Source: Pseudomonadota bacterium
Lineage (GTDB): Bacteria > Bdellovibrionota_B > Oligoflexia > Oligoflexales > RGVZ01
DNA length: 25,473 nucleotides
Direction: 5' to 3'
NCBI GenBank assembly: GCA_041178085.1
Contig: JBEGVZ010000003.1
Span: 1-25,473, forward strand
The position numbers were made by a program. The stretch's first letter is position 1. Each line of letters begins with the position of its first letter. Below are positions 3,001 through 9,000 of the stretch, in pieces.

Positions 3001-6000
3001 CTCATGTCACGATTGCCAGAGCCTTTTTTTGAAACACCAGCCATCACCCCGGAACAGTTTCTGGCCGAGCTCCCGCGCTGGATTCTGTTGGATGTGCGCT
3101 CACCCGCCGAGTTTGGTGAAGGGCACCTGCCAGGAGCCTGGAATTGTCCTGTTCTTGAAGACCTTGAGAGGCATCAGGTTGGATTGAAGTACAAACAAGA
3201 GGGCCAACAGGCGGCAATTGACCTCGGTGTCGAATTGGTCTGGTCCGCGCGTGAGGGACGCGCTAACGAGTGGTTGCGTCGCGCGCTTTCCGGGGTAACT
3301 GGTGAGCGGCGCATCCTGGTTTCCTGCTGGCGCGGGGGCCTGAGGTCGCTCCTGGCCGCGTCATGGGTTGCTGAAGTTCTCAAAAACAACCCAGACAGGT
3401 ATGGCCAGGTCAGTGTTTCTCGCCTTGCTGGTGGCTACAAGGCTGTCCGTGGCAAGTTGCTGGAAGCGATTTCAGCACCCAGGGACATGGTCGTCCTCTC
3501 CGGCATGACTGGATCCGGAAAAACAGCCCTTCTTCACGATTTGATCGCACTGTCCGGGTTCGACTCCCGGCGGGTGATTGATTTGGAGCGTCTGGCCCGC
3601 CACCGTGGAAGTTCTTTTGGCCACGCGGTGTCGGAAGCCGGTGAGCGCATTGAACAACCATCCCAACAATTTTTCGAAAACCAGCTCGGCCTTCAAGTTT
3701 TGCAAGGCGCATCCGGGCCGCTTGTGGTGGAAGATGAAAGCACGTTGATCGGCAAGATCTCCATCCCGCTAGAATTTCGCAGGCAGATGCGGGCGGCGCC
3801 CGTGGTGGTTGTGGAGACCCCCATTGACCTGCGTGCGCGGGCGATCTTCCGGGAATATGTCAGCCAGCCTCTTGAGCAAGGCTGCGAAGTCGAGTCACTG
3901 TGGCAGGTGCTTGCGGAAAATATCTCGGCTCTTGAGCGACGCCTTGGGGGGCAGGACACACGCGAAGCGCTACTGGCTCTTGCCAGTGGCAAGGCGTGTC
4001 CGCGTGAATTTGCTGCGCAGGATCCATGGATCCGGACTCTGCTGGAGAAATATTACGACCGTGCCTATGCCCAGTCTGGCCGGCTTGCAGAACGGAATGT
4101 GATTTTTCGCGGTGACTTGGTAGCTTGTCGCAATTTCTTGAAGGATTACGGGGGTGAGTGATGGCGGTCCAGGGTGACACTCAGCAGGAACCGGTGAAGT
4201 TAACCCAAACCGTTCAGAAGGGGGGGTGCGCGGCAAAACTGCCGGCCGGGGAGCTGCGTGCAGTGCTCGCAGGCCTTGAGCAAAAGCGACCACCCGAACT
4301 TTTGGTCGGCCATGACACCATGGATGACGCCTGCTTGTGGGACTTGAAGGATGGCAGGGTTTTGGTCCAGACGTTGGATTTCTTCACGCCGATCGTCGAC
4401 GACCCGTTCGACTTTGGGGCAATCGCCGCAGCCAACTCGATCAGCGATGTTTATGCCATGGGCGGCACTCCGGTCACGGCGATGACCATTCTTGCCTTCC
4501 CGGGTGCCCGTTTGCCACTGGATCTAATTCGTCCCCTGATGGACGGGGCTTTATCGGTCCTGAACCGCGCCGGCGTCGCGCTTGCTGGGGGGCATACGAT
4601 TGACGATGAAACCCTGAAGATGGGTTTTTCAGTATCGGGCTTTGTAAACAAGGATAAAACCTGGACCAACGCGGGAGCCAAGGCTGGAGATGTCCTCATC
4701 CTGACCAAGCCTCTCGGTACCGGGACTATCACCGCTGCCTTGAAGAAAGGGGAGGCGAAGCCCGACTGGGTGAAGGGGGCGATCGACAGCATGGTGCGGA
4801 TCAATGATCTGCCTAAAGTTTTGGCAGAGTTTGCTGTCCATGCCGCCACGGACATCACGGGCTTTGGTTTTGCCGGCCACGCGATGCAAATGGCTTGTGC
4901 CAGTGGCTGCAGTTTTTTGATCAATCCCGATTCTTTGCCTACACTTGAAGGTACAGCAGATTGTTTAAAGGCCGGGTTTTTGACCCGGGCGCATACGACC
5001 AACGGCAGTTATACCGGAAGTGGTGTTGGCTGGGAGCTGGATGGAGAAGCCGCCCAGCGCTGGCCGGATGTGATGCGCAAGCTCGTGGTGGATCCACAGA
5101 CGTCAGGTGGGCTGCTCCTGGCTATAGCACCGGACCATGCCGAAGCTGCGCTAAGTGCCATTCGCAGAGCTGGATTTGACCGTGCTGTTGTTGTTGGTGA
5201 AGTGGTGCCTGCGATGGGCATGACGCCCGGCAAGTATCTCGTTTTCCGCCGGTAGGTTTTCAAAAAGCCTCCGGTTGTTTCTCTGGAGGCGTTGTGCGAT
5301 GGCAAGAGTTTGTCCTCTGGCAGAGCGTGGTCTGGGCCGCGGCGCGATGAAGGCGCAGTTCGGCCTTTCCCATACGCTTTGCTCCACCCAAAGTGCGGCT
5401 GGTTTTAACGGGCAGCCAGTTGCCGGGTGGCTCGTTGGCATGAATGGCCAGCACTGGGGCGAGGACTTTCGTCTGTGCGTCGGCTCTCTGGTGATTGGCT
5501 CTGGGTATCAGTCAAACCTTTGTGTCACATACCCGGGTGTTTCCGGTCGTCACGCTGAAATTATTGTCGACGTGGCCGGTTCCAGTATCAGGGACCTTGG
5601 CAGTCGGGACGGGACTTTCGTGAACGGTCATCAAGTCACGACGGCTCAGATCCTGGACGGAGACGAGATCGCCTTTGGCCCCGCCCGGTTTATCTTCAGG
5701 ACCGCAACAAAATTCGATCCCGGTTACAAGCCAGTTCTGCGGCCGCGGCCGGCGTCTCCTGTTTTCCGGAATGAAAACCGGAAGCGTCTTTGCGAGGGCT
5801 GGATTGTCGGTCAATACGGGCCCTATGCAGGGCAAGACTTTCGCTTGCTGACGGGTGACAATTTTTTTGGTGCGGCGCCAGGACTTGAGGTTTCCCTGGT
5901 CGATGCAAAACTTTCTCCGCGTGCCGGCCATCTGGCAATGGGCAACGGTGGTTGCGTTCTGGTGTTCGGTAGCGGTGCCAATCCCGTCCGCAGGGTTTTG

Positions 6001-9000
6001 CAGGATTCTGATGAAGTACAAATCGGCAGTCACAATTTTTATGTGAAGATTTTCCATGGTTGAACGGGCCCCTATCATTGCTTCCTGGGTTGCTGTCGTT
6101 GCCGTTGCGCTGGCGGGCCATCCTGCTTCTGCAGCCAGCAAACTTGTGCGCATCCGTGCCGTTGAGCCAACGGATGATTTCAAGTTGATTGTCTTCAGTC
6201 GTGTTCATGAGGAAGAAAATAAAATCCTGTTTCCGGTGACAACCCTTGATCGTGAGGCATTCACGCTCACGCTGGGTAAAAGTGATCCGGCAAGGCTCAA
6301 GCCGGATTCACTGTCCACGTTCAGCACCCTTGCCCAGCCGCGGGTCCGACGCCTGGTTGTCACGTTGCCTGTTGCGGCTAACGTACCCCGGGCAACTCTG
6401 GATGATATCCGCCAGACCCTTGCGGAAAATCTACCGCTGACGCGGAGCGAATTTTTTTCCGTGCTTTCGGTCACATCCAGCGGTGAACTGGAAGTGGCGG
6501 GCACTTCACCGGGTGAATCCGACAACGTCCGGGCGCTGCAGAAAAAGATCCTGGACGCCCCGCCTGCCGGGGAGAACACCGGAATTCATCAAGCGGTGTG
6601 CGCTGCTGCAAAAAAATTTGCATCGTGGGCGCCTTACGCTTCACGCCCCGGTGAACAACGGGCAGCCATCCTGATTGGGAATCCATCAGTCGAATCTAAG
6701 GATGGTTTGAAACGCCTTTCCGCCTGCCTCGATCAGCTCAAGGTCGCAGAGGTTGCCGTCTACTTGTTGCGTGCGGACTCGATCCCGCCGCTGCCAGTGG
6801 GTGCCGAGCAAGTGTTTCAAGACGGTGCACGGCTTGGTGGCGGGTTCGTCCAGCGCATCAGTTCACGGGTAGATCTTTATCCCGCGCTCAGCAACGTATT
6901 GGGAAACCTTAATGAGGAATACGTAGCTACTTTTGACCTTTTTTCACTGATTGGCACTTGGGAAGGTCGGAATGCGATCGCACAGGACGGGGTTTCTTAC
7001 CTGGATCTGGGGGTTTCATATCACGGTCAGGATGTTTCGTCTGGCATGTCTTCTGTGCCTCTCCCTGCGACCTGGCGTGACAACATTGAACGCATAAACA
7101 AGGCCGGCACATCGCGGGAAAAAGCGATCCGGTTGTTCACAGACCTCAATCCCCCCGAGAGGATCGTTGCAGGCGTTCTAGCTGTAATCCTGTTGGTTAC
7201 ACTGTTTTTTATTTTGCGTTACTGGTTCCTTTCGATCCGCCTGGCAATGCGCTCTGTTCGATGCCGCACCTGTGGCCTTCGGGTTAAAAGGAGTTTCAGT
7301 AACTGTCCATATCGTGACAACAGCTTCGCTGGCTGGTTGTCTATCCTCAACGGGCCGGACGTGGGGATGGTATTGCCTGTCATGGAAGGCCGGAATTTGC
7401 TTGGAACATCGGATGCTTGCAACATCCACGCAGGAAAGGGCTATCGAATCCGCAGGAAACATGCCGAACTCCTCCTCGACGGGGGAAAGGCGCAGTTGAA
7501 GTTGTTGCGCGGCGGAATCCTGCGGCACGGCGATCAGATCAACGGGTTTGAAATCAGAGAACCACGACTGCTGTGTCACGGTGACGTAGTCAAGCTCGGC
7601 AAGGCGTTCATGCGGTTTGAGCTTCGTGTTGCGGAACAATCCGCGACGGTTTCCCAGGAGGCTTGAGGATTGTCAGACCGGCTTACCATTCGTTTTCTAT
7701 CAGGGCCTTTAAGCGGGCAGATGTTCTCCATTGGCCTCGGGGACCTTTTCTTTGTCGGGTCTGACCCCGCGTGCAATGCTGTGATCGCTGGTGATCCCTC
7801 CGTTCATGCCAAGCATGTTTGCATATACTATCGCGCGCCTGGCAAGGTTCTGATCAAGGATCTGGGCAGTGCAAACGGTAGCCGGATCAATGGCAAGCAG
7901 CTTGGCAAGACCTCCAAGTTGCGTGACGGGGACCGCATTACAGTTGGAACCAGTGCAACTTTCCAGTTCACGGTATGGGACCCGATGCAGCCCACGCGGA
8001 TGACCGGGATGCTCAGGCGCAGGTTGTCTTCCATGAGCCGCCTTGCGCGGCGTCGTGTTGCCCCTAACCCTGGTGCAATTCCTGTATTTGGTGACTTAGG
8101 GGACGTCAGCTGGCGACCGGGAAACCGGGTCAAGACGGCAGTGGTCGGTGTTATGGCCGGGTCAGCATTGGCTCTCATGTTGTTCGCCGGGGTCAGGCTT
8201 TACGAGCGCAATGCGAGAAACCTGCCGGCGGGCCTGCCAGGGGTTGAGTTGCGGGCGCTTACTCCTGGGGGAAGCCGCGAGAATCCTTCCACACGTTCAT
8301 CTGTTTCGCTGCCAAAGCTTGAAGTCGATCGCGATTTCATTTGGGACGAGATCGTGAATATTTCTGTCCGTTTTGGAGAGACTCCACCGTCCGTCATGGA
8401 TGTCGACTTCATCAACAAGGTGCAGTACTGGATCAACCGGTTCACGGTCCGGGGGTACCACCGCGAACTTTTGCGGCGCCGCCAGCAGTACATTCCGGCG
8501 ATCGAGTCAGCGTTGAAGGAGCAGAACCTTCCGCTGGAACTTGGCTATCTGGTCTGGATCGAGTCGGCCTACGAGATCGACGCATTGTCGTCTGCAGGGG
8601 CGAAAGGGTTATGGCAGCTTATGCCTGCGACGGCCAGGGAATACGGACTGCGCGTTGATCAGGGGCGACGTATTGATGAGCGGGTTGACCCTCTGAAGAG
8701 CTCCCGTGCAGCGGCTTCTTATTTGAACCTGCTTTTGAAGATGTTCGGTGGACAGCGTTACTTGCTCGCCATTGCGTCGTACAACACGGGGCAAAACCGG
8801 GTGCAGCGATTCCAGATTGCTACGACCATCCGGCAATCGCGTGCGGCAGACTTCTGGCATCTAGTGGACCAGTTGCCTGCGGAGACGGTCGATTACGTGC
8901 CCAAGTTCCTGGCGGCTGTGATCGTTGCGCGAAATCCGGGGCGTTTTTAGTTTTTGGTCGCATTGCTACCTGAACTGTCTTTCATGCTCAGGGCAATCGA

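Follow-up and report, generated by a model that had tools for sequence, protein, structure and literature searches.

Gene content and linkage of the A-B-C cassette

The window, which is the whole analysed stretch of 25,473 nucleotides, contains three consecutive genes on the forward strand, here called A, B and C; all features given below lie on this strand. Gene A (5299..6063) encodes a putative soluble adaptor of 254 aa with tandem FHA folds, and two FHA-like stretches are also seen in its homologues. Both domains lack the phosphothreonine-binding arginine. The first one (5491..5679) carries G-S, S-G-R-H and D-G at the motif positions, with G-S or G-A in 37/37 scored homologues, and the invariant residues of the protein (W44, G50, H52, G54, E55, D56, R58) fall outside the phosphothreonine loops. 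A GarA-like label given to this protein in a preliminary description of the locus was rejected, given the tandem FHA arrangement and an OdhI score of 44 bits against a cut-off of 200.

Gene B (6056..7666), which shares 8 nt with gene A, encodes a 536-aa protein with a signal peptide, a periplasmic beta-sandwich with a vWA fold, one transmembrane (TM) helix, a Cys-rich stretch and a degenerate FHA domain. Its two hydrophobic stretches (residues 1-26 and 369-387, from hydropathy) and FHA match (residues 449-515, Pfam) agree with the preliminary description, which had placed two FHA genes of 254 and 536 aa upstream of gene C on the same strand. The vWA fold of the periplasmic part (residues ~27-345; 6134..7090) was assigned from homologues, of which 4/41 match Pfam VWA (best E 8e-8), and from Atlas structure rows that name VWA at a TM-score of about 0.5; gene B of the window itself has no Pfam match in this part. 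The MIDAS metal site of vWA domains has the motif DxSxS. By eye it is absent from the window copy, and a D-N-S-S and T-D-G remnant is present at locus L052. An invariant Cys182/Cys224 pair would fit a periplasmic disulfide. The TM helix (residues 369-387; 7160..7216; KD 2.78) is followed by a zinc-ribbon-like stretch with three cysteines, C403xxC406...C417-P418 (7262..7309), which is missing from one paralogous clade, and by the FHA domain (7400..7600; G-T, R-R-K-H and H-G).

Gene C (7670..8950; 426 aa) begins with a TTG codon 3 nt past the end of gene B. The combination of an FHA domain, one membrane helix and an SLT domain previously claimed for its product was borne out by Pfam matches (FHA 29-93, E 6e-14; Yop-YscD_cpl 8-95, E 1.5e-10; SLT 278-381, E 2e-23), by a single hydrophobic stretch (best 19-mer 157-175, KD 2.2) and by an AlphaFold2 model. 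A model from the single sequence (pLDDT 34) was set aside; the model used, from a 62-sequence alignment, has a mean pLDDT of 83 and consists of a beta-sandwich (residues 5-102; pLDDT >90 in the FHA part), a long helix (153-183), a disordered segment (188-213) and a helical catalytic domain (221-421). The TM helix (residues 157-175; 8138..8194) is preceded by a basic, presumably cytoplasmic linker and is located between FHA and SLT in 61/63 relatives. Lys and Arg are more numerous before than after the helix in 46/61 and 60/94 cases; because this positive-inside bias is weak, the predicted topology rests mainly on domain identity.

Past the helix, a predicted periplasmic helical subdomain (residues 220-277; 8327..8500; mean identity 54.6%), with invariant E227, R234, F235, G236, P239, P240, D244 and F247, precedes the MltD-type catalytic domain (8501..8947). 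The motif LVWIESAYE noted earlier is found at residues 294-302 and includes the catalytic Glu298 (8561-8563); E298, S299, G313, W315, Q316, A369, Y371, N372 and G374 are invariant in 65/65 relatives. The best match of gene C by both sequence (E 6e-25) and fold is MltD (family 1D; Pseudomonas aeruginosa 8RHE/8RHF/8RHI), and an alignment to 8RHE reveals shared Glu-Ser, GLWQ and A-x-Y-N-x-G motifs. The NCBIfam profile PRK10783 (MltD) matches at E 2.5e-32, but with a score of 112 against a cut-off of 508. The LysM repeats of MltD are absent, as the protein stops at the end of the catalytic domain and has no Pfam LysM match. MltD has an N-terminal export or lipoprotein signal, whereas the only hydrophobic stretch of gene C is internal, and an inner-membrane helix and a cytoplasmic FHA domain take the place of the signal. 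Judging by its catalytic motifs, gene C would encode an intact MltD-type lytic transglycosylase, and together with the predicted topology this favours the claim of a periplasmic cutter with a catalytic Glu-Ser pair.

The order A-B-C was observed in 36/42 loci fetched via matches to B or C, the other six ending at contig edges; these loci represent three related lineages, so that their linkage is not independent evidence. The flanking genes differ between genera, and the cassette has stayed together despite new neighbours and a duplication. Among 131 genomes, B is present in 31 and C in 32, and these are the same genomes except for one that is 66% complete. With these queries, the cassette was not found in G092 and G095, which are ~90% complete and belong to the same genus. 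No machine gene adjoins the cassette in the window and in the loci of 20 relatives (L001 and L002 were omitted from this count as likely duplicates of included loci). A promoter and terminator scan of the stretch gave nothing better than shuffled sequences. The B-like vWA-TM part is fused to FHA-FHA-TM-SLT in a single protein, P0122 (hhalign probability 77%, E 2e-5, 265 columns); this is one sequence and comes from another SLT subclade. The metagenome loci encode mostly ordinary LysM-type MltD, with a full FHA-TM-SLT gene in 7/80. A Ser/Thr kinase gene adjoins two of these seven, too few to generalise, and none of the seven has a B-like gene; therefore, the three-gene complex is lineage-specific.

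The phosphothreonine pocket of the gene C FHA domain

Phosphothreonine binding by FHA domains is defined by three motifs, GR, SxxH and NG (PMC3162421). In the FHA fold of gene C (7754..7948), the site after strand 3 reads G30-S31, with Ser31 (7760-7762) replacing Arg; the site before strand 5 reads H46-A-K-H49, with His46 (7805-7807) replacing Ser; and N69-G70 is present before strand 7. Of the closest sequences, 0/13 have the Arg, 1/13 the Ser and 1/13 the Asn, the only Asn being that of gene C itself. Across the whole clade Arg occurs in 1/62 sequences, and 31/62 members keep a G-K, S-R-x-H and N-G set and might still bind phosphopeptides. Elsewhere in the genome, all three motifs are kept in three proteins, in a total of four FHA domains. 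The FHA core of gene C has a mean identity of 43%, versus 14-25% for the linkers.

The nearest solved FHA domain by sequence and fold is that of Chlamydia CT664 (3GQS), which likewise has G-S and to which the 11-strand beta-sandwich of gene C aligns with a Foldseek TM(target) of 0.91. CT664 belongs to the type III secretion MxiG family, whose FHA domain is non-canonical (PMC3162421). MxiG, YscD and CT664 resemble gene C in having a cytoplasmic FHA fold without the phosphothreonine residues, followed by one TM helix (PMC3162421; 3GQS); they differ in that their periplasmic part consists of ring domains, whereas in gene C it is an enzyme. The type III family TIGR02500 matches gene C only in the FHA part (16.6 bits, cut-off 86), and no type III genes are nearby.

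Thus, with two of the three motifs broken and free drift at these positions among its closest relatives, the role of phosphothreonine reader proposed in the preliminary description is not supported for gene C, and the caveat given there, that the FHA domain may serve assembly instead of regulation, is the better reading for this protein. Its reading site has decayed, and the protein probably serves as a constant component of an envelope complex of three proteins. By their motif residues, the FHA domains of genes A and B are as degenerate as that of gene C.

The wider FHA-TM-SLT family

The reported count of 13/30 Atlas clusters with both FHA and SLT was reproduced. In the SLT tree, the gene C clade (support 100/100) has as its sister group (100/96) a clade in which FHA domains are canonical and kinase fusions occur; the deep backbone is weak, and the tree does not set FHA-SLT proteins as a whole apart from LysM-MltD as one clade. 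Canonical FHA motifs are present in 76/97 distant FHA-TM-SLT proteins and 93/98 sister-clade proteins. The sister clade also includes Ser/Thr-kinase-TM-SLT fusions (13/120 hits), in which both active sites, including the HRD/DFG motifs of the kinase, are intact. Kinase fusions are also represented by P0214, P0216 and P0086, and receiver-domain fusions (REC-TM-SLT) by P0079 and P0189. The catalytic Glu is kept in 101/101 FHA-SLT representatives and 119/120 sister-clade hits (alignment count). Sister-clade proteins carry a juxtamembrane S-G-x-T-M-x-I-like motif (10/14 rows; 55/98) and a predicted coiled stretch; no plasmid copy was found at E 1e-25. By source names, the hosts of the family are Myxococcota, Acidobacteriota, Oligoflexia and some Betaproteobacteria.

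In most of the wider family, the FHA domain looks able to read phosphorylation, and some relatives have a kinase instead; for the family, the earlier idea of a phospho-signal is well supported. We propose, with slightly less than even confidence, that these proteins are widespread and undescribed single-pass lytic transglycosylase "enzyme-receptors" of diderms, each linking an intact MltD-type cutter on the outer side of the inner membrane to an interchangeable cytoplasmic FHA, tandem FHA, active Ser/Thr kinase or receiver domain and thereby coupling phosphorylation to cleavage across the membrane in one chain; the window cassette would be a derived form with phospho-reading replaced by a fixed FHA-FHA scaffold and a vWA co-receptor. 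We found no description of FHA-, kinase- or receiver-TM-SLT fusions, or of the vWA-TM-FHA-FHA-TM-SLT fusion, in the literature searched. The claim of an undescribed wiring of kinase signalling to peptidoglycan must be narrowed in view of a Gram-positive precedent, the single-pass MltG of Enterococcus faecalis, whose cytoplasmic Thr20 is phosphorylated by the PASTA kinase IreK (PMC12369325). Both MltG and gene C are single-pass transglycosylases, and in MltG the cytoplasmic part links to Ser/Thr-kinase signalling, but the fold and the host are different, the enzyme is a kinase substrate, and the cutter has no fused FHA, kinase or receiver domain.

How diderms switch wall cutters on at the right place has so far been explained largely by periplasmic partners. 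If the proposal is true, a membrane-spanning cutter with an FHA, kinase or receiver domain would connect phosphorylation in the cytoplasm directly with cutting of the wall. The kinase-TM-SLT fusions would then be receptor kinases whose ectodomain is an enzyme, a simple one-protein system for trans-membrane control in either direction. The window cassette would then be a natural experiment, the same module minus the phospho-reading pocket.

Models for the function of the cassette

The reading we favour, to which as a whole we give an even chance, is that A, B and C form one phospho-independent inner-membrane complex that places an active cutter. The gene C cutter would be anchored by its one helix on the periplasmic side of the inner membrane, B would be a second single-pass protein whose periplasmic vWA-fold domain acts as a sensor or partner of the cutter, and A would be a soluble adaptor with tandem FHA folds. 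With their phosphothreonine pockets lost, the four FHA folds in the cytoplasm would serve as docking modules, as in MxiG-type secretion proteins; docking would bring the complex together and position the cutter, or license it, to open the wall locally. The module may descend from a Ser/Thr-kinase-coupled FHA-TM-SLT system and have lost the phospho-reading step in this lineage. A related logic is known from type VI secretion, in which MltE or TagX is recruited alongside the PpkA-Fha1-PppA pathway of threonine phosphorylation (PMC13584744); this system likewise combines kinase, FHA protein and phosphatase with a wall-opening enzyme for a trans-envelope machine; there the FHA protein and the cutter are separate, and the accessible text names no FHA-transglycosylase fusion. 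TssC/VipB is absent from the 96%-complete genome, the window contains no type VI core gene, and the flagellum does not track the cassette, FlhA being present in 112/131 genomes.

It is rather unlikely that the complex is instead under indirect kinase control, as the substrate or non-canonical partner of a Ser/Thr kinase whose gene lies elsewhere, such that phosphorylation of a Thr in a cytoplasmic linker of A, B or C switches assembly or cutting while the gene C FHA domain reads no phosphate. The four Pkinase genes over cut-off and two PP2C genes reported for the genome were recovered, an Arg-less FHA-2 domain of a Chlamydophila type III protein binds PknD and is phosphorylated by it (PMC3162421), and phosphorylation of MltG by IreK and the sister-clade juxtamembrane motif point the same way. 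At one locus (L052/L133) a kinase gene sits inside the cassette, with a second kinase and a PP2C gene close by, but in 20/21 loci no kinase or phosphatase gene adjoins the cassette, the enclosed kinase has no clear orthologue in the present genome (best 27%, kinase domain only), and the gene C cytoplasmic linker is poorly conserved (23-25%). The grouping of vWA, FHA, kinase and phosphatase at L052/L133 resembles the vWA-kinase-FHA-PP2C operons DRA0331-0334 of Deinococcus (bioRxiv 10.64898/2026.01.23.701218), and an FHA-gated enzyme, DgcB, is known from Bdellovibrio, in a related phylum (PMC6733907); both differ in having canonical FHA domains and no transglycosylase or membrane-spanning enzyme.

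Signalling in the opposite direction seems improbable to us. In this model the SLT domain would report the state of the wall, its binding or cutting of glycan would make the protein dimerise or change its conformation, and the cytoplasmic domains would relay the signal inwards, in this lineage to the A/B FHA scaffold as the output. Fusion of the same periplasmic module to kinases and a receiver domain is consistent with such a receptor, and the conserved periplasmic helical subdomain and the predicted coiled stretch of the sister clade could dimerise, but conservation of the catalytic Glu throughout fits an enzyme and not a pure sensor, and the window cassette has no output domain. Marginally more doubtful still is the preliminary model for gene C, in which the cutter is recruited or activated when its FHA domain binds a partner that carries phosphothreonine: the canonical domains of distant and sister-clade proteins, the His49, Asn69 and Gly70 kept here and the Lys/Ser/Asn set of half the clade speak for it, but Arg and Ser are lost in gene C and in all but one of its closest relatives, none of which shares its Asn, and canonical motifs are kept by the genome's other FHA proteins. 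That gene C is an ordinary membrane-anchored MltD-like housekeeping enzyme with a decaying FHA relic and a merely historical linkage we regard as very improbable, since its patchy distribution, including the gaps in G092 and G095, is set against the conserved FHA core, the survival of A-B-C through neighbourhood change and duplication, and the presence in the genome of five other SLT proteins, two of them MltD-like.

An assignment of gene C to the gliding protein GltG, which has an FHA-TM-TonB-like architecture, was rejected (NF033760, 23 bits against 650). A GltG-like protein, labelled by inspection, is encoded elsewhere in the genome (G000:C67).

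Genes of the cassette and conservation of their order

The analyzed genome (3.0 Mb, 96% complete) carries the window as its contig C3, where three close-packed ORFs were found on the + strand exactly as the preliminary description had placed them: gene A (5299-6063), gene B (6056-7666) and gene C (7670-8950). The product of gene A contains two FHA folds in tandem, and its invariant residues fall outside the phosphothreonine (pThr) loops. The B protein consists of a signal peptide, a periplasmic domain of the vWA fold, a transmembrane (TM) segment, a Cys-rich stretch and a degenerate FHA domain. 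The architecture proposed for the C protein was confirmed by Pfam, hydropathy and an alignment-based AlphaFold2 model: an FHA domain (residues 29-93, E 6e-14), only one hydrophobic stretch (residues 157-175) and a lytic transglycosylase (SLT) domain (residues 278-381, E 2e-23). The model (mean pLDDT 83) comprises a beta-sandwich, a long helix, a disordered linker and the catalytic domain. By both sequence and fold comparison, the best solved matches are Chlamydia CT664 FHA for the N-terminus and Pseudomonas aeruginosa MltD for the catalytic part. Glu298 and the remaining catalytic motifs are unchanged in all 65 close relatives, and a TM-like stretch separating FHA from SLT is present in 61 of the 63 close proteins and in 94 of the 98 distant ones.

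Gene C was identified in 32 and gene B in 31 of the 131 genomes of the phylum, these being the same genomes except for one 66%-complete assembly; a broader profile added only ordinary MltD-like matches. The order A-B-C is complete in 36 of 42 fetched loci, which are not independent, since they were selected by a match to B or C and drawn from three related lineages; the other six end at contig ends. Among the 42, one locus has two genes between B and C and one has B split in two frames; one lineage possesses two paralogous cassettes. Across 21 wide loci the neighbours vary by genus, while A-B-C is constant. In this genus alone, a Rhodanese/P-loop protein and an AIRS-fold protein (window 3004-5255, + strand), which we take to resemble SelU and SelD, lie 5' of the cassette; a close match to the SelD-like protein is likewise missing from two members of the genus without the cassette.

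Wider family of membrane-anchored transglycosylases

The family is broader than the preliminary description saw. When 1.84 billion representatives were searched with a profile and the best 150 matches examined, 101 proteins had FHA before SLT, all with the catalytic Glu; of the 97 whose motifs are complete, 76 have at least one fully canonical FHA. In a maximum-likelihood phylogeny based on 77 SLT domains (hand-chosen from 189; deeper forks without support), the Oligoflexia proteins form a group (100/100) that is sister (100/96) to a mixed clade (100/96) of canonical FHA-TM-SLT, degenerate FHA-TM-SLT and Ser/Thr-kinase-TM-SLT proteins. With the periplasmic region of one of the kinase fusions as the query, the best 120 of 202 matches included 98 FHA-SLT proteins, 93 of them canonical, and 13 full kinase-SLT fusions, all with HRD and DFG; the catalytic Glu aligned in 12 of the 13, one being unaligned at that site. 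Source names of these listed sister-clade matches include Myxococcales, Deltaproteobacteria, Rubrivivax and Burkholderiaceae. The kinase fusion used as the query is no assembly artefact, since its own cluster contains five full-length proteins that derive from three sources. Fusions in which both the kinase motifs and the catalytic Glu are intact (P0203, P0285-P0296, P0214, P0216, P0086) are, judging by their predicted domains, receptor-kinase-like, with the enzyme as ectodomain. Two 449-aa receiver (REC)-TM-SLT proteins, P0079 and P0189, would likewise be a two-component version of this design, and P0122 is a single vWA-TM-FHA-FHA-TM-SLT fusion that can be aligned over its first half with the B family. 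A juxtamembrane motif, S-G-x-T-M-x-I/M, is conserved in sister-clade proteins (e.g. P0071, P0161, P0170) and missing from the kinase fusions; it is a candidate self-phosphorylation site for the protein's own FHA.

Among 80 metagenome loci, only seven contain a full FHA-TM-SLT gene, none of them together with a B-like gene. One (L056:4512-9512) has FecR, a CHASE2-Ser/Thr kinase and a canonical FHA-TM-SLT as one apparent operon, and in another the gene is divergent from a TPR kinase gene.

No FHA-, kinase- or receiver-fused lytic transglycosylase is described in the titles and abstract openings of the papers listed by full-text searches of the open literature, though supplementary architecture tables or subscription papers may list such proteins; none is named in the available portions of PMC3162421, PMC12419801, PMC13584744, PMC13037476, PMC6733907, PMC11444678 and bioRxiv 10.64898/2026.10.19.760177. 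The nearest described case is phosphorylation of the cytoplasmic part of Enterococcus faecalis MltG by IreK (PMC12369325).

FHA motifs and the proposed role of the cassette

Binding of pThr by FHA requires three motifs, GR, SxxH and NG (PMC3162421). Their counterparts in C are G-S, H-A-K-H and N-G, thus its FHA is no canonical phospho-reader. Among the 13 sequences closest to C (67-100% identity), the Arg is retained in none, and the Ser and the Asn in one each. Position 31 across the C clade (n=62) is occupied by Lys (31), Ser (28), Ala (2) or Arg (1). The Lys group retains S-R-x-H and N-G and so may still bind phosphate, whereas the window's group probably does not. Within the same genome, the canonical FHA domains of three other proteins, four in number, serve as an internal control; the non-canonical ones belong to A, B, C and a GltG-like protein. 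The proposal that FHA reads phosphothreonine and gates wall cutting across the membrane therefore fails for C itself, but is plausible for the family, given its canonical FHAs and kinase fusions.

The most likely reading, to which we give an even chance, is one in which A, B and C would assemble into one inner-membrane complex, phosphorylation-independent FHA contacts would place or license the active cutter, and the present cassette would be the derived state of a kinase-coupled ancestor. TssC was not found in this genome; FlhA is present, as are four pilus/secretion ATPases that pass the cut-off, none of them near the cassette.

That the complex itself is phosphorylated and thereby controlled is unlikely. 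A variant cassette (L052:2905-12055 and L133:493-7016) replaces A by two single-FHA genes flanking a TM Ser/Thr kinase gene, and its neighbours are a PPC-domain gene, a Pvc16_N/DUF4255 gene, a second kinase (PEGA) and a PP2C-TM-TPR protein. B of the variant retains a clear vWA, and a 396-aa ORF there has no match in Pfam or PHROG. Outside-in sensing by C, for which the kinase fusions offer a parallel layout, is quite unlikely for a protein with an unaltered catalytic site. Direct reading of pThr by C's FHA is very unlikely in view of its motifs, even with canonical domains common among its relatives. Highly improbable is a relic: for all its lost motif residues, the fold is under constraint, as mean identity within the C family (57 sequences) is 43% for FHA vs 14-25% for the linkers, the catalytic domain reaching 60%.

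Other genes

An FHA-GGDEF protein whose FHA is canonical and whose N-terminus has an E-K-T-I-I stretch, encoded at G000:C48:10292-11335 (- strand; C48 is another contig of the genome), resembles Bdellovibrio DgcB; two Ser/Thr kinases and one PP2C are encoded on the same contig. The window itself also encodes a 459-aa multi-TM protein (777-2156, + strand) with no Pfam match at E 0.01, whose C-terminal half, by eye, we take to resemble a degenerate class III nucleotide cyclase, as well as a GYF_2-PilZ protein (12396-13004, + strand) and an ORF with a PLD-like domain (14950-16224, - strand).
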